This document shows, piece after piece, positions 2,523-12,136 of a stretch of DNA of 22,968 nt. Every line of letters starts with the position of its first letter. Positions within the stretch are counted from its first letter, which is position 1. The notes under the pieces were generated by a model, which was given only the letters and a program-made list of their open reading frames with translations, did not search any database and was not told the DNA's origin. The DNA is from Ignisphaera sp. Its GTDB lineage: Archaea; Thermoproteota; Thermoprotei_A; Sulfolobales; Ignisphaeraceae. Where the stretch lies: positions 1 to 22,968 of the forward strand of contig JAWAHS010000010.1 in assembly GCA_038889075.1 (NCBI GenBank), given 5' to 3'. The position numbers and the translations under genes were made by a program.

Positions 2523-2630
2523 GTGGAGCTGGATCCTGCAATAAGCTTAGGCTATGTACTATCGATACTAGTGCTATTTCTAGGGATAGCAGTAAGCGTC
2601 TACATGAATTCTAGGAGAAGAGGTGGATGA
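2523..2630 (+). CDS. 35-aa single-TM membrane protein, probable accessory subunit of the symporter
   Basis: GGGTG RBS, GTG start; MELDPAISLGYVLSILVLFLGIAVSVYMNSRRRGG is one hydrophobic helix with a basic tail; its stop overlaps the symporter start (ATGA). Confidence 0.65.
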   Translation: MELDPAISLGYVLSILVLFLGIAVSVYMNSRRRGG

Positions 2631-4141
2631 TTATTGTGGTGCAACAACCCGTACCGGGCGGCGCCACTAGTATCGACACCATCATAATATTCGCTGTACT
2701 GGGTGCAACTGTTGCAATAGGGTTTGTAGGCCATAGAGCAAGCAGTACCATAGCTGGATACATGTTTGCAAATAGAAGCCTAGGTCCATGGCTTCTATCG
2801 TTCTCCATAATGGCAACCTACTTTAGTGCAGCATCGTTCCTAGGTGGAGGTGGTGCTACCTATCTCTACAACCTGGGTTTCGGTGCATGGTTAACGGCTT
2901 GGCATGTCATAGGGGTTGTGGCTCTCTGGCTCATTGTTGCTGGTAGGCTATTCGACTACATATCGAAGGCTAGGGTTATGAGTATACCGGAGCTCATAGA
3001 GTATAGATATGGAAGCTTTGCAGCAAGGCTGATCGCTTCCTCAATAATAGTAGCTCTATTTACACTCTACCTCTCGAGCGTCTACAAAGGAGGTGCCGTA
3101 GTAATAGCATCTCAGCTTAGAGTAGATCTACAGATAGCATTGTTACTACTTGCTGTACCGGTGGTGCTGTATCTAGTTGTTGGAGGGATGAGGGCTGCTA
3201 CGGTAAACAACCTCTTCCTAGGGTCTATGATGCTTACAGCAGCTGTACTAGCCTTCTACTACATTATGAGCTACGTCGGAGGGCCTTTAAATGGGTTGAA
3301 GATGCTTGCAAACACAACAGTTCTAGGTAGATACCCTGGTACACTCTGGCTAAGGATGGATGGTATGGGTCCTCCTCCAGCAATGGAGAAGAACGCTGTA
3401 CCGCTGCTTATAATGAGCATAGCATTCTCTATAGGTATGGCCCAGGTAGCGTTGCCAAACCTATTGATACAGTTCTATGCAGCTAGAGACTATAGAGCTA
3501 TTGAGAGAGGGAGGTTAATCGGACCTATACTCGTTGCTCTCTATGCTATTCTGATGTTCTCCCTCGGAGCATTCTGCCACCTAATAATAGACGATAAGCT
3601 CCAGCTCCAGGAATTGGCACAGCTTATGAAGGATACCGACTGGGTTATACCGAAGACCATTTCCCTCATTGTGCAGCCAGCTGTAAAAGGATTTATATTG
3701 GCAACACCTGTGGCAGCATCAATATCCACCATAGCACTAACAGTTCTAACACTTACAAATACTGTCACTAGAGACTTTATACAGCCGTTCATAGAGATTA
3801 GGAGAGAGAGTACTCTGGTGGTAATAGTTAAGCTGGTGTCGGCTATATTTGCATTGATACCGGTAATGCTAACGCTAATAGAGAATAGGCTTATAGTAGA
3901 AATCGTTGGAGCAGCCTTTGGAACAGTATTTGCCTGCTTCGTAGGTCCGATAACCATCGGTCTATACTGGAGGAGAGCATCTAGGGAAGGCGCTATAGCC
4001 TCTATGATTGTAGGTGTAGTAGTAGGTATAGCATGGTACCTATATCTATACAGAACAACGTGGATATATCCAACGATACCAGCAACAATACTATCTCTAC
4101 TAGCATTCACAGTACTTAGCATTGCTAAGAAGCGCAGATAG
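2627..4141 (+). CDS. Sodium:solute symporter (SSS; PanF/PutP-like), substrate unknown
   Basis: About 13 TM segments; YMFANRSLGPW, ATYFSAASFLGGGG, SIPELIEYRYGS, GGMRA, AASIST, GLYWRRASREGA. Confidence 0.92.
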   Translation: MIIVVQQPVPGGATSIDTIIIFAVLGATVAIGFVGHRASSTIAGYMFANRSLGPWLLSFSIMATYFSAASFLGGGGATYLYNLGFGAWLTAWHVIGVVALWLIVAGRLFDYISKARVMSIPELIEYRYGSFAARLIASSIIVALFTLYLSSVYKGGAVVIASQLRVDLQIALLLLAVPVVLYLVVGGMRAATVNNLFLGSMMLTAAVLAFYYIMSYVGGPLNGLKMLANTTVLGRYPGTLWLRMDGMGPPPAMEKNAVPLLIMSIAFSIGMAQVALPNLLIQFYAARDYRAIERGRLIGPILVALYAILMFSLGAFCHLIIDDKLQLQELAQLMKDTDWVIPKTISLIVQPAVKGFILATPVAASISTIALTVLTLTNTVTRDFIQPFIEIRRESTLVVIVKLVSAIFALIPVMLTLIENRLIVEIVGAAFGTVFACFVGPITIGLYWRRASREGAIASMIVGVVVGIAWYLYLYRTTWIYPTIPATILSLLAFTVLSIAKKRR

Positions 4142-4165
4142 AACGGTAGATGGATATATAATACA

Positions 4166-4182
4166 GATAAACTTTTTTTATC
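4166..4182 (+). terminator. Probable oligo-T terminator downstream of the symporter
   Basis: T7 run at 4173-4179 inside GATAAA..TTTATC inverted repeat, about 30 nt after the stop codon. Confidence 0.5.
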
Positions 4183-4369
4183 AGTACACCATCTTCTTCT
4201 TAGAAGAATTCGATGCTGTTTATTGTAGCGGTATTTTGATGGGATGAACCGAGTAGGCTATACGATCGTTCTACCAACTCTGCATGTACTATATTTAAGC
4301 TTGGTAGTATTAGGGTATCTGAGTACTGTAGGCTTAATATGGATTGGCAGGTTTCGGGGTTTGGGAGGA

Positions 4370-5488
4370 TTGGTTGGAGAGGGATTTCTACTTAAGTGTC
4401 TACACTGTGGCTACGAGGTTCAGAGCAACACCCTTCTCCAATCCCATTGTCCCCGCTGTAGCGGTGTACTAGAAGTAGAGTATAGCAGACCTGTCTTCAG
4501 AGTTGCTACTGGTGAGAAAGGTTTATGGCGCTACCTACCCCTGCTTCCACCCATACGTAGCAGAATATCCCTCGGTGAAGGCCTTACCCCTCTAAGTAGA
4601 GTAGGTAGAGTATTCATTAAGAATGAACGGTATAATCCAACTGGTTCCTATGCCGATAGAGCTTCAGCTATTATAGCATCCTATGCTAGGGATCTAGGGG
4701 TAGAAAGAGTTGTAGCACCTTACGTAAGAGATTTTACACGCTCCCTCACATACTATCTACTCAGCATAGGGATTGATGTAGGTGTTGCAGTAGATAGCAT
4801 CTTCAGTATTGAACTCGACGATATTGTATTCTTTTCATCGAAAGATGTAGACGTAGTTGGAAAGGCCAATGTTAGAGGGCTATTCATAGACTACGTTAAT
4901 CCCCTTACTATAGAGGGTCTTAAGACTATAGTTTTCGAAGTATACGAGAAGAAAATAGATGTAGAGCATATAGTTGTCCCTGCTGAAACTGGTCTACTCT
5001 CCATATCTATACAGAAGGGCTTAAGAGATCTCCAGCTTGGTGGAAGCGAATTTAATTGCGAGGTAGTTGCAGCTAAGGTTAAGGGCTTCGACTCCCCTCT
5101 ACTCCGCGGTATCCACGGTATACGCATCGTTGAAGTTCTAGAGGATGAGGTCTACGAAGCGTATAAGAAGTTTGTTAGCAGAGGCTTTAAGACCAAGCCT
5201 CTAGCTGCCCTTAGCTACTATGTAGCCGAATCTCTAGGTAGTGCCGTAGCTGTTGTAACTATGGGCTTTGCCTCTCCATCTGGGGGTAGAAGTATGGTTA
5301 AGAGATTTGTAATGGATGTTCTATCGAGGAAAAGTCGTTTAACAGCCTATGAGATCTGGAGGGAAAAACCTATCTACACCTTGAGGGCTGTATACAAAGC
5401 TGTTAAAGATATGGAGGCTAGGGGAGAGTTGTGCTTTGATATAGCGGCTAGGGGGAAGCGCAAGATTAAGCTATACAGACTCTGTTGA
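4370..5488 (+). CDS. Threonine-synthase-like (fold-type II PLP) protein lacking the catalytic Lys, with N-terminal Zn ribbon and C-terminal wHTH
   Basis: CLHCG..CPRCSG; GLWRYLPLLP, SLGEGLTPL, KNERYNPTGSYADRA (canonical FKDRG), NPLTIEGLKTIVFE; C-terminal VLSRKSRLTAYEIW..TLRAVYKAVKDMEARG..RKIKLYRL. Start approximate (TTG 4370 after GGAGG; the ORF is open from 4244). Confidence 0.8.
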   Translation: MVGEGFLLKCLHCGYEVQSNTLLQSHCPRCSGVLEVEYSRPVFRVATGEKGLWRYLPLLPPIRSRISLGEGLTPLSRVGRVFIKNERYNPTGSYADRASAIIASYARDLGVERVVAPYVRDFTRSLTYYLLSIGIDVGVAVDSIFSIELDDIVFFSSKDVDVVGKANVRGLFIDYVNPLTIEGLKTIVFEVYEKKIDVEHIVVPAETGLLSISIQKGLRDLQLGGSEFNCEVVAAKVKGFDSPLLRGIHGIRIVEVLEDEVYEAYKKFVSRGFKTKPLAALSYYVAESLGSAVAVVTMGFASPSGGRSMVKRFVMDVLSRKSRLTAYEIWREKPIYTLRAVYKAVKDMEARGELCFDIAARGKRKIKLYRLC

Positions 5489-5559
5489 TAGAGCTACTGA
5501 ACGTTCAACAAAGCATAATTCTCTGTACCTTGAATCCCAAACTCCACAGGGTTTGGAAT

Positions 5560-6309
5560 ATGAAGGTATATGGGATATTGAGAGCAATCGTATTTACCGT
5601 AGTAACATTCATAGCAACAGTACTCCTAGTTATAGAAACGCCTGCAACTGGCGGCTACTTTAACCTAGGTGAAGCATCGATATACGTTATAGCATCCATG
5701 GCCCCTCCACTAACTACAGCTATAGCAGCGGGTCTTGGCCCAGCGTTAGCCGATCTAGTTCTCGGATACTGGTACTTTGCCCCAGCAACATTTGTTATAA
5801 AGTTCTGTGAAGGTTATATAGTCTCATCGCTGATGAAGAGGCTTGGGAAGCGTAGGGTGGAGAGTGTTATGAGGATACTAACTGTTATAGTAGGTGTACT
5901 GCTGTCTACTGTTATCCTAGCCACCATGGTTGGCGGTGGAGGAGGTGAAGTAACAGGGGCTACCTTTAGCTGGACAGAGACCTCAATTCTAGGTTTAAGG
6001 ATTGCTGTACCGAGTTTTGCTATACTCCTTCCATCCTATGCATGGCTAGCTATATCAGCACTAGTGGTAGTTCTATCGGTAGCTATAGCTTTTGTAAGAA
6101 AACCGTATGTACTAGCCATGGCTGTAGGGGGCATGGTTATGGTGCTGGGGTACTTCCTCTACGAATTCTTCATATCTAATCCGCTGATACTAGGTAGAGA
6201 TCCTGTGGGAGCAGTATTCGAGGTACCTGTTAACATAGGGCAGTTCACAGCTGGGATACTGCTATCCATACCTGTGGTGCAATTCATTGAAAGAGCTGCT
6301 AAAGGTTGA
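5560..6309 (+). CDS. ECF transporter substrate-binding S component (COG4720-like)
   Basis: PATGGYFNLGE, G.ALADLVLGYWYFAPATFVIKFCEG, GGMVMVLGYFLYE, EVPVNIGQ; ATG 5560 preferred over TTG 5485. Confidence 0.85.
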   Translation: MKVYGILRAIVFTVVTFIATVLLVIETPATGGYFNLGEASIYVIASMAPPLTTAIAAGLGPALADLVLGYWYFAPATFVIKFCEGYIVSSLMKRLGKRRVESVMRILTVIVGVLLSTVILATMVGGGGGEVTGATFSWTETSILGLRIAVPSFAILLPSYAWLAISALVVVLSVAIAFVRKPYVLAMAVGGMVMVLGYFLYEFFISNPLILGRDPVGAVFEVPVNIGQFTAGILLSIPVVQFIERAAKG

Positions 6310-7555
6310 GGGCTTAAGGATATACGCTGGGGGTAGACCAGTAACACTGGTGGAGTCCCTGGATGTAGGAGAAGGAGAGGTCGTACTCGTTACAGGTCCT
6401 TCTGGAAGCGGTAAAACAAGTTTTTTAAGATGTATTGCGGAGGTCAACGATATATTCGGCATTACCTGCTCCGGATACATGGCCCTAGGCATCGATAGGG
6501 ATGAGCTCAGCTACATACCCCAGGAGCCTTGGTTCGGCATGGCATCTCCATATCCAATCCTAGAGGTGAGGAGTTTCAGTAACGCTGATGACTACTCTGT
6601 GCGTAGATATGCTAAGCTTTTCAATGTGGAGCACATTCTCGAGTCCAACTCTATGGATTTAAGTGCTGGTGAAATCCAGAGGATACTCTTTATAGAATCG
6701 GTGCTAAGCAGATCAAAGCTGGTGCTGGTAGATGAGGTTACAGCATACCTAGATGAAGAATCTAGGAAACAGCTGGTTAACGTAATTGAAGAAATGCGAA
6801 GCGAATTCGGGGTTGCATTCATTGTTGTAGACCACGATGTAGAGCTTTGGAGTAGGCACATCGATAAGGTTCTGTACCTGGAACCTACAAGTAGCTCGAG
6901 AATCTACTACAATGTAGATGAAACTCCGCTTATGGCGAGTATGGATAGGCTTAGAGCAGAGGTTGAGGAGCTATCTAGAGAACTCGCGGAGAAGGTTGGT
7001 GAGGAGCCGATTCTAAAGCTATACAATGTCTGGTTTAGATACCCGGATTCAACAGATTTTGTAATCAAGGGTGTCAACATCGATGTGAAACGTAGTGAGA
7101 TGATGGTAATCCGAGGCCCCTCTGGAAAAGGTAAGTCAACACTTCTAAAGATCATGGCCGATATCTACAGGCCTAAGAAAGGGGTTGTGCTAAGGTATGC
7201 TAAGGATATACAGTACATTCCAGAGAATCCACTACTATACCTTTCAGAGCCTACACCTAGAGATGAGCTTATGAAGAACACAGATCTAGCTGTAAAGTCC
7301 AATCTCATCCGCGTTCTCGATACACCGATAATGAGGTTGAGCTCTGGGGAGAAAAGACGTTTAGCAGTAGCATCTGCTTTAGCCCGCGGCTCCGATCTGA
7401 TCCTGCTGGATGAACCGTCTGTTGGATTGGATGCGGAGAACTTTATCAGCATTCTCAAGCTGTTAATCGAAGCAGTTTCAAGGGGGGTGAGCATAGTTAC
7501 TGCAACCCACAGTAGATTGCTATCCTCAGTTACCCGATCTGTGGTTCAACTCTAG
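6287..7555 (+). CDS. ECF/ABC ATPase with two tandem nucleotide-binding domains
   Basis: Walker A GPSGSGKT and GPSGKGKST; signatures LSAGE and LSSGE; Walker B VLVDE and ILLDEP; H-loops VDHD and ATHS. Confidence 0.9.
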   Translation: MKELLKVEGLRIYAGGRPVTLVESLDVGEGEVVLVTGPSGSGKTSFLRCIAEVNDIFGITCSGYMALGIDRDELSYIPQEPWFGMASPYPILEVRSFSNADDYSVRRYAKLFNVEHILESNSMDLSAGEIQRILFIESVLSRSKLVLVDEVTAYLDEESRKQLVNVIEEMRSEFGVAFIVVDHDVELWSRHIDKVLYLEPTSSSRIYYNVDETPLMASMDRLRAEVEELSRELAEKVGEEPILKLYNVWFRYPDSTDFVIKGVNIDVKRSEMMVIRGPSGKGKSTLLKIMADIYRPKKGVVLRYAKDIQYIPENPLLYLSEPTPRDELMKNTDLAVKSNLIRVLDTPIMRLSSGEKRRLAVASALARGSDLILLDEPSVGLDAENFISILKLLIEAVSRGVSIVTATHSRLLSSVTRSVVQL

Positions 7556-7572
7556 AAGTTGGGTGCAGTACC

Positions 7573-8286
7573 TTGGGGAGGTATGCAAGAGCACTATCAG
7601 CAGTGGTGACCGTTATTCTACGTTCACTATTTCTATACGGTTTTTCAAAGCTTAGGAGAGGCTCGATATCTCTGAGTATTGTACATGTTGTTCTAGCGAT
7701 AATCAGTGGGTTGGGCAGTGTTGAGCTACTGGTTCTCTACACTATACCGATAGCTACTCTGTACACAGCTCTAAGAATGTATATCCTCCTAATCTACACA
7801 CTAGCTGTATCCTCTATACCTGGGCTATGGATGGCCCTAACGCAGCTACTCCTAGATGTAGCCAAAGGCGTTGTGGATCCGTATAGGTATCTAGCAATAT
7901 ACGCTAGAGCAACCCTCATATCCCTAAACATAATGTTTACACTACATACTCTAAATCCTACGGAGATTTCAAAGCTATTCGATAGGGCGAAGAGATTTAG
8001 TGGAGTATACGCACAGCTGTTCATGAGGATAGCATCCTTCTTAGTAAAGGAGGGTATAGAGATTGTGCACACACATTCACTTAAGAGAGAGAGCTTATGG
8101 AAAACACTAGCAATACTTATACTAAGAGGAGATGAAATTGCCAAAGGCTTTAGCGAAGGACTTATACCAAAGTACCGTAGGTATAGATCTACGGCCATCT
8201 ACGACATAAAGACCGTATTACTACAGCTAACGATTATAATATATGATGCTATTCTAATCCTAATCACAACTACATTTATACAGTAA
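7573..8286 (+). CDS. Probable ECF transmembrane T component (divergent EcfT/CbiQ-like)
   Basis: Hydrophobic N-terminal half, HTLNPTEI motif, amphipathic coupling helices (LRGDEIAKGF); directly follows the S and ATPase genes. Start may be GTG 7603 or 7606. Confidence 0.65.
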   Translation: MGRYARALSAVVTVILRSLFLYGFSKLRRGSISLSIVHVVLAIISGLGSVELLVLYTIPIATLYTALRMYILLIYTLAVSSIPGLWMALTQLLLDVAKGVVDPYRYLAIYARATLISLNIMFTLHTLNPTEISKLFDRAKRFSGVYAQLFMRIASFLVKEGIEIVHTHSLKRESLWKTLAILILRGDEIAKGFSEGLIPKYRRYRSTAIYDIKTVLLQLTIIIYDAILILITTTFIQ

Positions 8287-10510: not shown

Positions 10511-12136
10511 CTATCTAATTATTAGTGGTAGTGTGTATATTAGGAATGATGTTAGGGCTGAGCCTGCAATGCTTCCAGAGCCACCTATGAAGAATACATC
10601 CCTTACTCTCTCTCTGTATATTCTACTTAGGATCACCCTTGCAGCTATGGTTGCAAGGGATACTACACCAGCCATTGGATTGAGTATCATGAGACCTGTG
10701 GCTAGTAGGATGCCGATCTGCTTTTCCGGACCTCCAATAAGCTGTACTATAAACCCTATTGGTGCCCACATAAGTAGGTAGTTCATTAGCTGGGGATCTG
10801 CGGCTGCAAAGGAGGCTGTTGCAAGGGTTCTTGCTGCAGGTGGGAAGAGGTCGTGTGTAAAGTAGCCTGTGTAGACGAGGAGCACTATAGCTAGAGCAAT
10901 TAGGAGCGCCACTACCTCTGCAAGGAATTGCCAGAATCTACCAGCACGTTCAAATTTTGGATCCTTACCCTCTCCTCTCAACATCCACCCGGTCTTTAAA
11001 TCATATGATAGATCGGCCATTCCAGGACCTGTGGCAGCTACATATGCAGCTCCGATGGCGAGGGCAACTGGTGGGAAGCCTAGGAGTAGCCCTATCATTA
11101 GGGTAGCTAGTGCTGTAGCAAATGCTGGGAACCACCCTGCATGCATTCCAGAGAGTGCGCATACAAGGGTTGTCCACAGAGCACCGACACCAAAGTACAG
11201 TATCCACGCAATTGTATGGCTAAGGCTCATCATGTTGTTGAGGCCTAGGCCAAAGGCAAGGGCTGCAGCTCCAATAAGCCATAGCACTAGTGCTAGTGAA
11301 ATGCTTCTAAGAGCCTCACCTGCACTAACAAGGGTTGATATCGCTGGGCTGCTGGAACCTGCTGAGGATCTAGGGGAGGACATCCTTCTTCTGGTTCTGA
11401 TATACAGTATAACAAATTGGAGAATGGCTGCAATGCCAGCCCCTATCATGATTCCATGTGGGGCGTACATCTTATATAGATCGATTCCAAACCACTGGGG
11501 TGAATATGCCCTTAGGATAAGCCCTATTCCAAACATTGCTATAGCCCATACATTGCCTATCAATGCTATACCCATAACGTCACCCGGGTACCTAAAGTAT
11601 GTAAGTAGTGCTCCAACAATACCACCGTATAGGAGGAGCAGTGCTTTCTTTCCCCTCTCGAGGCCGGCTCTTATAGATAGTGCTGTAGACACCCCTATTG
11701 GCCACGGATTTGATGCTGGATAGAATGGCGAGTCGAATATCTTATAGGCTAGAATAAGATCTATCAAACCAGAGAACAGTAGACCCACTAGAGCCCCGTA
11801 GATCATATATGGAAGTAGCACACCAGCTTTTGCACCCGCCAGCCATACAACGGCCAGACCTAGTAGCAGAACATTTCCAGCTGTAAATGTGGCTCCAGAG
11901 ATCACGGTCTGTATAATATTTACCCTGTGTACGTTCAGGAAGTACTTTCTCGTAAATCTCGTTGGGAGGTAGCCCACACCTATGGCTATAAGAGCTCCTA
12001 TTATAGAGGTATTAGGGTTGATCCCTACACGAACTATAAGCTCAACCCCTATTATAGCACCCAGTACACCTATTAAAGCCCCTGCTACAAGTAGTACAGG
12101 TTCGTATAGCTTCGGGTGGTACTCACCCGAACTCAT
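10511..12136 (-). CDS. OPT/YSL-family oligopeptide transporter
   Basis: Highly hydrophobic 541 aa; GINPNTSIIGA, N.IQT.ISGATF, PWPIGVSTA, GMHAGWFPAFA, ADLSYDLKTGW, GILLATGL; GGTGA RBS upstream. Confidence 0.85.
   Translation of the reverse strand: MSSGEYHPKLYEPVLLVAGALIGVLGAIIGVELIVRVGINPNTSIIGALIAIGVGYLPTRFTRKYFLNVHRVNIIQTVISGATFTAGNVLLLGLAVVWLAGAKAGVLLPYMIYGALVGLLFSGLIDLILAYKIFDSPFYPASNPWPIGVSTALSIRAGLERGKKALLLLYGGIVGALLTYFRYPGDVMGIALIGNVWAIAMFGIGLILRAYSPQWFGIDLYKMYAPHGIMIGAGIAAILQFVILYIRTRRRMSSPRSSAGSSSPAISTLVSAGEALRSISLALVLWLIGAAALAFGLGLNNMMSLSHTIAWILYFGVGALWTTLVCALSGMHAGWFPAFATALATLMIGLLLGFPPVALAIGAAYVAATGPGMADLSYDLKTGWMLRGEGKDPKFERAGRFWQFLAEVVALLIALAIVLLVYTGYFTHDLFPPAARTLATASFAAADPQLMNYLLMWAPIGFIVQLIGGPEKQIGILLATGLMILNPMAGVVSLATIAARVILSRIYRERVRDVFFIGGSGSIAGSALTSFLIYTLPLIIR

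Follow-up and report, generated by a model that had tools for sequence, protein, structure and literature searches.

The window analyzed here is a stretch of 22,968 nucleotides (nt) from Ignisphaera sp. (GenBank assembly GCA_038889075.1, contig JAWAHS010000010.1, positions 1 to 22,968, forward strand). The protein encoded at 4361-5488, called the regulator below, is likely to be an archaeal one-component transcription regulator of vitamin B6 supply and a counterpart of PdxR built on the fold of the fold-type-II pyridoxal 5'-phosphate (PLP) enzymes. It combines a threonine synthase-like domain, in which the Schiff-base Lys is replaced by Ala, with a C-terminal winged helix, and a conserved palindromic operator stands just behind its gene. 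The assignment draws on computed evidence, comprising sequence features, the predicted fold, the conservation and position of the operator, its co-occurrence with the regulator gene, and the make-up of the putative regulon. The original prediction, made from the letters of the window, had proposed a one-component regulator whose sensor is a fold-type-II domain without catalytic activity. This view is supported by a family-wide loss of the Lys under purifying selection, and further by the winged-helix model, the adjacent conserved operator, the co-occurrence data and, in one lineage, a recognition helix and an operator that changed together.

Domain organization of the regulator

The following features of the regulator gene were identified, with the basis of each in parentheses.

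4361-5488, + strand: regulator gene, Lys-less threonine synthase-like protein with a C-terminal winged helix (open reading frame list, homologs, Pfam, AlphaFold2, Foldseek)
4397-4459, + strand: zinc-ribbon motif CxxC-x13-CxxC, residues 13-33 (conserved in an alignment of 93 sequences)
4652-4654, + strand: GCC codon, Ala98 at the position of the PLP Schiff-base Lys, NPTGSYADR (sequence, HMMER alignment to 2zsj and 1uim)
5294-5485, + strand: C-terminal winged helix-turn-helix, residues 312-375, divergent PadR-like (AlphaFold2, Foldseek, hhalign)

The reading frame ending at 5488 is intact, as originally read, and is open from an ATG at 4244. Because homologs have about 373 amino acids (aa) and P0002, which is 99% identical, has 375 aa, the start was placed at TTG 4361, giving 375 aa, or at the alternative TTG 4370; the stop codon occupies 5486-5488. 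ATG 4244 was rejected as the start, since it would give a 39-aa hydrophobic extension without counterpart in the homologs. The added residues, encoded by 4244-4360, include a membrane-helix-like stretch, and their absence from homologs indicates that this segment is probably untranslated. The homolog search returned 186 proteins at E ≤ 0.001, of which the 120 listed provided the residue counts given below; 93 of the listed matches, with short or partial ones left out, formed the family alignment. This search and the related loci described below place the family in records of Ignisphaera, Desulfurococcaceae, Thermosphaera, Thermofilum, Acidilobaceae and Pyrodictiaceae, as well as Fervidicoccaceae, Thermoproteus, Conexivisphaera and Methanomethylicia; Hyperthermus butylicus is among the species named in the homolog list.

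Both Pfam (PALP, 2.3e-15) and Foldseek assign the regulator to the fold-type-II PLP enzymes. The AlphaFold2 model, computed with 93 homologs, has a predicted local distance difference test score (pLDDT) of 92.4 over the whole protein, and its top matches in the PDB are the threonine synthases 2c2b, 6nmx, 2zsj and 1v7c (E about 1e-14). The protein nevertheless lacks the Schiff-base Lys, the SSGN(T) loop and the curated family score of a threonine synthase, with the best NCBIfam model (PRK05638) giving 108 bits against a cut-off of 421. The N-terminal CxxC..CxxC zinc ribbon, already recognized in the original prediction, comprises C13, C16, C30 and C33 in the 375-aa form. C30 and C33 are invariant in the 93 aligned sequences and C13 and C16 are found in at least 90% of them. 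NCBIfam gives weak matches of this ribbon to rubrerythrin-like and RpoP ribbons, and it is also carried by P0120 and P0121, two relatives that have the Lys.

HMMER pairs NPTGSYADR of the regulator with NPTGSFKDR of the solved threonine synthases 2zsj and 1uim, which, together with the codon itself, upholds the earlier reading of Ala in place of the Schiff-base Lys at 4652-4654. In the 93-sequence alignment this column contains no Lys at all (Ala 60, Ser 20, Val 6, Thr 4, and Ile, Leu and Met one each). Among the 120 listed homologs the Lys is missing from 118 (Ala 72, Ser 30, Val 8, Thr 4, Leu 2, Ile 1, Met 1), and the two matches that bear it, P0120 and P0121, are without a winged helix and still carry SSGN. 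A winged-helix signature was recognized in 115 of the 120; apart from these two, the exceptions are one frameshifted and two partial sequences. Nei-Gojobori ratios of nonsynonymous to synonymous substitution (dN/dS) were 0.10-0.21 in ten of eleven locus pairs, the remaining pair being saturated. The outcome of the check named in the original prediction, an alignment of homologs combined with dN/dS, thus agreed with it. Judged from the sequences, the loss of the Lys in this family is ancient and is neither a recent mutation nor a sequencing error, since the residue occurs in none of the aligned and only two of the listed homologs.

The general layout of fold-type-II active sites is described in PMC6411801. 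In the alignments, the substrate loop (SSGNTGIS in P0120 and P0121) corresponds to YVRDFTRS in the regulator, in agreement with the earlier statement that the SSGN loop has been replaced, and the Arg of NPxR..EGQKT is also replaced (NPLTIEGLKT). The phosphate loop VVPAETGLL aligns with PVASGTLL of P0120 and P0121. The original reading of this loop as PAETG stands. The loop is not a sign of decay, because the nearest Lys-bearing relatives are equally devoid of a Gly-rich loop. Other pocket residues are kept, including Y97 before the lost Lys (92/93), T/S210 (89/93) and G211 (93/93), and Thr300 stands at the TGxGLK position. We take these aligned positions to be PLP contacts, and that of Thr300 to be the residue facing the ring nitrogen. 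Two further Lys residues, K87 and K188, are invariant in the family.

Residues 312-374 of the regulator (5294-5482) are predicted by AlphaFold2 to form a helix-helix-helix-strand-strand unit, and the C-terminal 72 residues folded alone gave a pLDDT of 89.4. Foldseek matched the isolated domain to Stf76 (2mlg), TA0346 (3elk), an operator-bound ROK repressor (5f7q), a PadR-DNA complex (5x11), TFE-alpha and 8ioi, with template modelling (TM) scores of 0.73-0.77 for 2mlg and 5f7q and for the PadR structures 5x11, 3elk and 8ioi. The C-terminal winged helix-turn-helix of the original prediction is thus borne out by structure prediction and by similarity to winged-helix DNA-binding proteins. An hhalign comparison with a Pfam-confirmed PadR domain gave a probability of 87% (E 4e-6). 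The winged helix is among the best-conserved regions of the regulator, and its likely recognition helix contains YTLRAVYKA.

Two Cys residues of this domain, Cys 358 at the start of the first wing strand (5432-5434) and Cys 375 as the very last residue (5483-5485), occur in every one of the 31 C-terminal domains aligned. Neither is found in the Thermoproteus-like lineage or in the lineage with the variant operator. A disulfide or a metal site is a possible role for the pair.

Gene neighborhood and operator

We retrieved 80 related loci, called their open reading frames and clustered the products; six had no called regulator frame, and context was counted over 75 loci, comprising the other 74 and the window. 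The two dominant neighbor clusters are named by Pfam as PdxT (SNO, 1.8e-47) and PdxS (SOR_SNZ, 4.9e-92), the products of pdxT and pdxS, which form PLP synthase. The order pdxS-pdxT-regulator was found in 29 of the 75 loci and regulator-pdxS-pdxT in seven, while two (the window and L002) have the regulator followed by a set of genes for the S, A and T components of an energy-coupling factor (ECF) transporter. The remaining 37 were classed as other, although five of these keep PdxS or PdxT adjoining, at a contig end or with a broken frame call. A deep clade (31-35% identity) adjoins a B12-binding-domain protein and an acyl-CoA dehydrogenase.

A perfect palindrome with the core TGAACGTTCA and the extended consensus yTrTTGAACGTTCAAyAAnnnwTwa lies upstream of pdxS. 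In the 40 loci that contain pdxS with 80 nt or more of sequence ahead of it, the core occurs before pdxS with no more than one mismatch in 38 (30 exact, eight with one mismatch), at a median distance of 47 nt from the estimated pdxS start in the 40-locus set. The two exceptions are L021, in which pdxS is split and an exact site precedes its first piece, and L038, with a two-mismatch version. In loci arranged regulator-pdxS-pdxT, the operator stands between the regulator stop and pdxS. Over the 40 sites the right flank is also conserved, with A at +12 and +13 in 35 and 37 sites, respectively, and T at +18 in 39. Altogether, the loci and the window (1.07 Mb) contain 37 exact cores, compared with about one predicted from base composition. 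Without exception, these are found within or shortly ahead of the called start of one of a few gene types: pdxS, the ECF S component, a major facilitator superfamily (MFS) transporter (L040 and L049, by Pfam), the regulator itself (L052) and a long frame containing the regulator (L046).

The corresponding elements of the window are as follows.

5497-5508, no strand assigned: candidate operator CTGAACGTTCAA, core TGAACGTTCA at 5498-5507 (window scan, comparative)
5509-5521, + strand: conserved AAyAA...TwA stretch directly after the operator (counts over 40 sites)

The operator of the window starts 9 nt past the regulator stop and lies 51 nt before ATG 5560 of the ECF S component gene, a spacing that matches the pdxS promoters. 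The sequence after it, CAAAGCATAATTC, fits the extended consensus, and 5509-5521 is likely to be the region of the TFB recognition element (BRE) and TATA box of the transporter promoter. As 5497-5508 is the sole 12-mer match with two or fewer mismatches in the window, an operator before the upstream symporter gene (2627-4141) was rejected. The DNA targets named in the original prediction, 4142-4370 and 2350-2523, have no operator at this threshold, and that part of the prediction was not upheld.

The 1.95-Mb genome of the window has a single exact core, the one ahead of the ECF S gene. One-mismatch cores in this genome were rejected as a regulon, with 24 sites found against about 56 expected by chance (hand estimate); of ten such sites examined, most were inside coding frames, and none was counted as a regulon member. 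One of these imperfect copies within the window, TGTACGTTCA at 11928-11937, lies inside the frame of a 541-aa membrane protein (10511-12136, - strand) and was taken for a chance match. Phylum-wide, counts of the bare 10-mer per genome were at the chance level and uninformative, and targeted pdxS upstream regions were used in their place.

Co-occurrence and co-variation across the phylum

An even sample of 151 genomes from the phylum was searched for full-length regulator genes, defined by more than 260 bits and profile coverage to about position 370. These were present in 15 genomes; the others gave only threonine synthase-like matches to the first 220-270 positions. Seven of the 15 also have pdxS, and all seven carry the operator at the canonical distance before it. 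In some of these the operator is kept although the regulator gene is on another contig or 38-139 kb away, as in G051 and G139, where exact operators precede pdxS and the regulator is 38 and 139 kb distant, respectively. The operator has one mismatch in G107, G126 and G134, and G059 and G115 carry the symmetric variant TTAAACGTTTAA. Among the 58 pdxS genomes without the regulator, 35 were tested over about 440 nt of upstream sequence, and none of the 35 has an operator with one mismatch or fewer.

The variant sites are accompanied by a change in the protein. In G059, G115 and G123 the otherwise nearly invariant Arg of TLRGVYKA, which is Arg342 in the regulator, is replaced by Leu or Gln. The variant 12-mer TTAAACGTTTAA occurs once in G059, before pdxS, and once in G123, before a transporter gene of the amino acid-polyamine-organocation (APC) type. 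G115 has three copies, one of them inside a coding frame and the other two ahead of pdxS and of the orthologous APC gene. A sister lineage that has the Arg carries the canonical operator before pdxS and before the same APC transporter family. This joint change, seen at the sequence level, appears to tie the operator to the recognition helix of the regulator.

Eight of the 15 regulator genomes have no pdxS. In these, the operator precedes an ECF S gene in G003, 100 kb from the regulator, and APC permease genes in G099 and G131, and in G062 it is located at a divergent pair of genes for an ATP-binding cassette (ABC) binding protein and permease. The window contributes a case in which the genome is without pdxST and the operator appears to have moved to an ECF transporter.

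Three individual sites and genes deserve separate mention. In G054 (L088, 1501-2524), which carries the regulator but no pdxS, the sole exact core stands before a 325-aa radical S-adenosylmethionine (SAM) gene. The regulator-less G148 has, at L119, the sequence GTGAACATTTAAAC with two mismatches to the core, about 218 nt from the end of the pdxS upstream region, which may be left over from an earlier operator or be bound by a related factor. The regulator match of G051 (G051:C1:344152-345243) has one in-frame TAG, yet the pdxS operator of this genome is intact; the longest frame read there has 364 aa.

Proposed mechanism and alternative explanations

Without the Lys, the domain derived from threonine synthase should be unable to form a PLP Schiff base, and its substrate loop has been lost as well. 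It would most likely bind PLP or another B6 vitamer reversibly, as a signal, because the aromatic residue, the Ser/Thr-Gly phosphate loop and the Thr are kept; non-covalent binding of PLP would fit such reversibility. The PadR-like winged helix, presumably as a dimer, would bind the palindrome TTGAACGTTCAA, which abuts the putative BRE/TATA region of target promoters. For prototrophs of B6, pdxS-pdxT would be the regulated genes; in the genome of the window, which is without pdxS, pdxT and pdxJ, this role would fall to the adjoining ECF operon (5560-8286). The liganded regulator may then repress by occluding TFB and TBP, resulting in negative feedback. This direction is the least certain step, and ligand-dependent repression is favored because the operator abuts the BRE/TATA-like stretch.

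The opposite sign is a tentative alternative, considered by analogy with PdxR and nearly as likely as ligand-dependent repression. The ligand-free regulator would activate from just upstream of the BRE, and PLP would switch it off, which is how bacterial PdxR is reported to act. The location of the operator upstream of the TATA-like element, and not over the transcription start, speaks for such an activator; however, the right half-site runs into the AAyAA stretch, possibly a BRE contacted by TFB, and occlusion fits this arrangement equally well. A regulator that controls B6 supply could also sense a ligand that is not a B6 vitamer, such as an amino acid, O-phosphohomoserine or a PLP-amino-acid adduct that reports the demand for the cofactor. 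The descent of the sensor domain from an enzyme of amino acid metabolism, the variety of residues replacing the Lys (Ala, Ser, Val, Thr, Ile, Leu and Met) and the APC-type "amino acid permease" genes in the regulon are consistent with this proposal. We consider it unlikely, as neither the SSGN loop nor the Arg of NPxR..EGQKT has been retained, whereas positions aligned with PLP contacts (the Tyr before the lost Lys, T/S-G and Thr300) are kept, and the core regulon consists of PLP synthase and transporters, one of them from the Pfam family of PdxU.

Two readings in which the protein does not regulate transcription have still lower probability. Another factor might bind the palindrome, with the pseudoenzyme acting as a PLP carrier, a homeostasis protein or a modulator of PLP synthase. 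Winged helices can also mediate protein contacts, and DNA binding by this one, which has no Pfam match, is something we infer. This explanation is improbable given that the operator is found before pdxS only in genomes that have the regulator (7/7 versus 0/35), that loss of the recognition-helix Arg accompanies a symmetric operator change at two regulon members, and that the regulator is retained in eight of 15 genomes with no pdxS to modulate. It is more improbable still that the protein has remained an enzyme, acting through another residue or without PLP, and that its C-terminal domain is incidental. The intact frame under purifying selection and the invariant K87 and K188 speak for an enzyme, but both Lys residues belong to motifs common to true threonine synthases, where neither is the Schiff-base residue. 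Moreover, the protein falls far short of the curated threonine synthase cut-offs and has another sequence in place of the substrate loop, and few of its parts are as well conserved as the winged helix.

Several observations weigh against the protein being a regulator of B6 supply. Its binding of DNA and of a ligand, its dimerization and the sign of regulation are all things we infer from the computed evidence. The C-terminal 72 aa have no significant Pfam match (HTH_11, E 0.16; PadR, PF03551, unmatched), and the assessment of the pocket, including the phosphate loop, comes from alignments and not from model coordinates. The related loci were drawn by a Lys-less peptide pattern, and this set is therefore silent on Lys retention. 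The single exact core in the own genome compares with about two predicted from base composition, a count that is not significant alone; the weight therefore falls on the place of the operator, its extended flank and its conservation across genomes. The two-mismatch match in the regulator-less G148 is at the canonical distance, and the operator of the pdxS-less G054 precedes the radical SAM gene and not a transporter. The co-variation of helix and operator was seen in one lineage and so probably represents one evolutionary event. Finally, about half of the related loci (37/75 by the strict gene orders, five of these still beside PdxS or PdxT), including the clade with the B12-binding neighbor, have no nearby operator.

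Relation to known regulators and to a wider family

PdxR, a member of the MocR/GabR subfamily of GntR regulators from Bacteria, is similarly a one-component regulator with a sensor domain derived from a PLP enzyme. According to PMC5320631, its regulon comprises pdxST, pdxK and pdxU, and Archaea have no members of the MocR subfamily. The two proteins appear to share the feedback logic on B6 supply and a regulon of pdxST with a PdxU-type transporter: in comparative genomics, the operator precedes pdxS in 38 of 40 loci and PF07155 ECF S genes in the window, L002 and G003. The regulator has neither the N-terminal GntR winged helix nor the fold-type-I aminotransferase domain of PdxR and instead consists of an N-terminal zinc ribbon, a Lys-less fold-type-II domain and a C-terminal PadR-like winged helix. 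The aminotransferase domain of PdxR, moreover, keeps its Lys. Because the domains differ in both fold and order, the likeness is one of function by convergence and not of descent. In contrast to PadR proteins, which have the same DNA-binding fold at the N-terminus followed by a short C-terminal dimerization helix, the regulator carries its winged helix C-terminal to an enzyme-like domain. With ThrC it shares the fold and the EGxTP, KxE..NPTGS-aromatic-x-DR and NP..EGxKT motifs, and with the nearest archaeal Lys-bearing ThrC relatives also the zinc ribbon; it differs in having no Schiff-base Lys or SSGN loop, in its score (108 versus 421 bits) and in its additional DNA-binding domain.

In Archaea, ThiR (thiamine) and RbkR (riboflavin) combine a vitamin-pathway enzyme domain with a DNA-binding domain and control genes for synthesis and uptake of that vitamin. 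The regulator would resemble them in principle, with another vitamin and another enzyme fold, and literature searches found no archaeal B6 counterpart of these proteins.

A longer form of 469-481 aa is encoded divergently next to pdxS in one genus, in all four sampled genomes with pdxS as judged by coordinates. Two of these genes are listed here.

L115, 617-2062, - strand: long-form gene, EPTGSYLDR (Leu for Lys)
L137, 186-1595, - strand: long-form gene, EPTGSYLDR (Leu for Lys)

In the long form the STGN substrate loop is retained, as are a GEGG phosphate loop and TGSGLKD, and the scanned protein from L115 contains a Pfam PadR domain. A search with it gave 709 matches, and all 120 listed combine PALP with PadR. 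Among the 115 listed members that cover the site, none has Lys there (Leu 58, Arg 21, Ile 20, Met 8, Phe 5, Val 2, Glu 1). The records come from Thermoproteota, Nitrososphaeria, Methanomethylicia, Brockarchaeota, Bathyarchaeia, Thorarchaeota and Methanobacteriota, and the ESM Atlas has a PALP+PadR cluster of 1978 members. Long-form proteins (about 440-500 aa, auto-named threonine synthase) share the zinc ribbon, the Lys-less PALP domain and the C-terminal winged helix with the regulator, which shares 27% identity with one of them across 259 aa; they are about 100 aa longer and have a PadR domain recognizable by Pfam. Since the winged helix of the regulator aligns to the PadR domain (hhalign), its family is regarded as a compact branch of this large Lys-less fusion family. 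On balance we lean toward a broader view, in which the regulator represents the B6 branch of a pan-archaeal, undescribed group of Lys-less threonine synthase/PadR factors with thousands of members, independent of PdxR, and the operator marks transporters. Neither form is described in the literature searched by abstract, most subscription journals lying outside it, and a search for the operator string gave only unrelated papers among the matches listed.

In the literature examined, no B6 regulator was named for Archaea. If the proposed function is correct, a defined protein, a 12-bp operator and a regulon become open to direct testing, and a different PLP-enzyme fold would have been reused convergently as a cofactor sensor. 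The operator would also mark candidate archaeal B6 transporters, comprising PdxU-like ECF, APC, MFS and ABC systems. PMC9997740 states that only three prokaryotic B6 transporters have been characterized and acknowledges this gap. Family members are auto-named "threonine synthase" or "PLP-dependent enzyme", a widespread mis-annotation that can mislead metabolic reconstructions.

Putative ECF transporter operon and vitamin B6 status

Downstream of the operator, the window contains three genes of the putative transporter.

5560-6309, + strand: ECF transporter S component, 249 aa, candidate B6-vitamer subunit (Pfam PF07155, 7.3e-18)
6287-7555, + strand: ECF energizing ATPase, two ABC domains in one protein (Pfam ABC_tran in two stretches, 1.4e-33)
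7573-8286, + strand: putative ECF T component, 237-aa membrane protein (position, L002 counterpart)

ATG 5560 is the likely true start of the S component. PF07155 is given in PMC9997740 as the Pfam family of the B6 transporters PdxU and PdxU2/HmpT. The ATPase matches NCBIfam ECF_ATPase_1 and ECF_ATPase_2 below their cut-offs. The product of 7573-8286 has neither a Pfam nor an NCBIfam match and clusters (c89) with the gene at the corresponding place of L002, a locus where the ECF genes are arranged identically and an exact core lies 57 nt ahead of the S gene. Sequence comparison makes a B6 vitamer the probable import substrate of the transporter encoded by 5560-8286.

Directly upstream of the regulator is a sodium:solute symporter gene (2627-4141, + strand), PanF/PutP-like below curated cut-offs, with a cyclophilin-like PF04126 gene (1961-2419, - strand) beyond it. 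Both genes are without an operator, and neither is a conserved neighbor among the related loci.

PdxS, PdxT and PdxJ were not found in the own genome (1.95 Mb, 99.58% complete), and if the proposed function is correct the organism is predicted to be a B6 auxotroph. The genome has a ThiD-type kinase and a PdxA-family gene. The latter, outside the window at G000:C1:409213-410106, encodes a dehydrogenase that matches TIGR00557 with 330 bits, above the cut-off, and is probably a paralog with another role.

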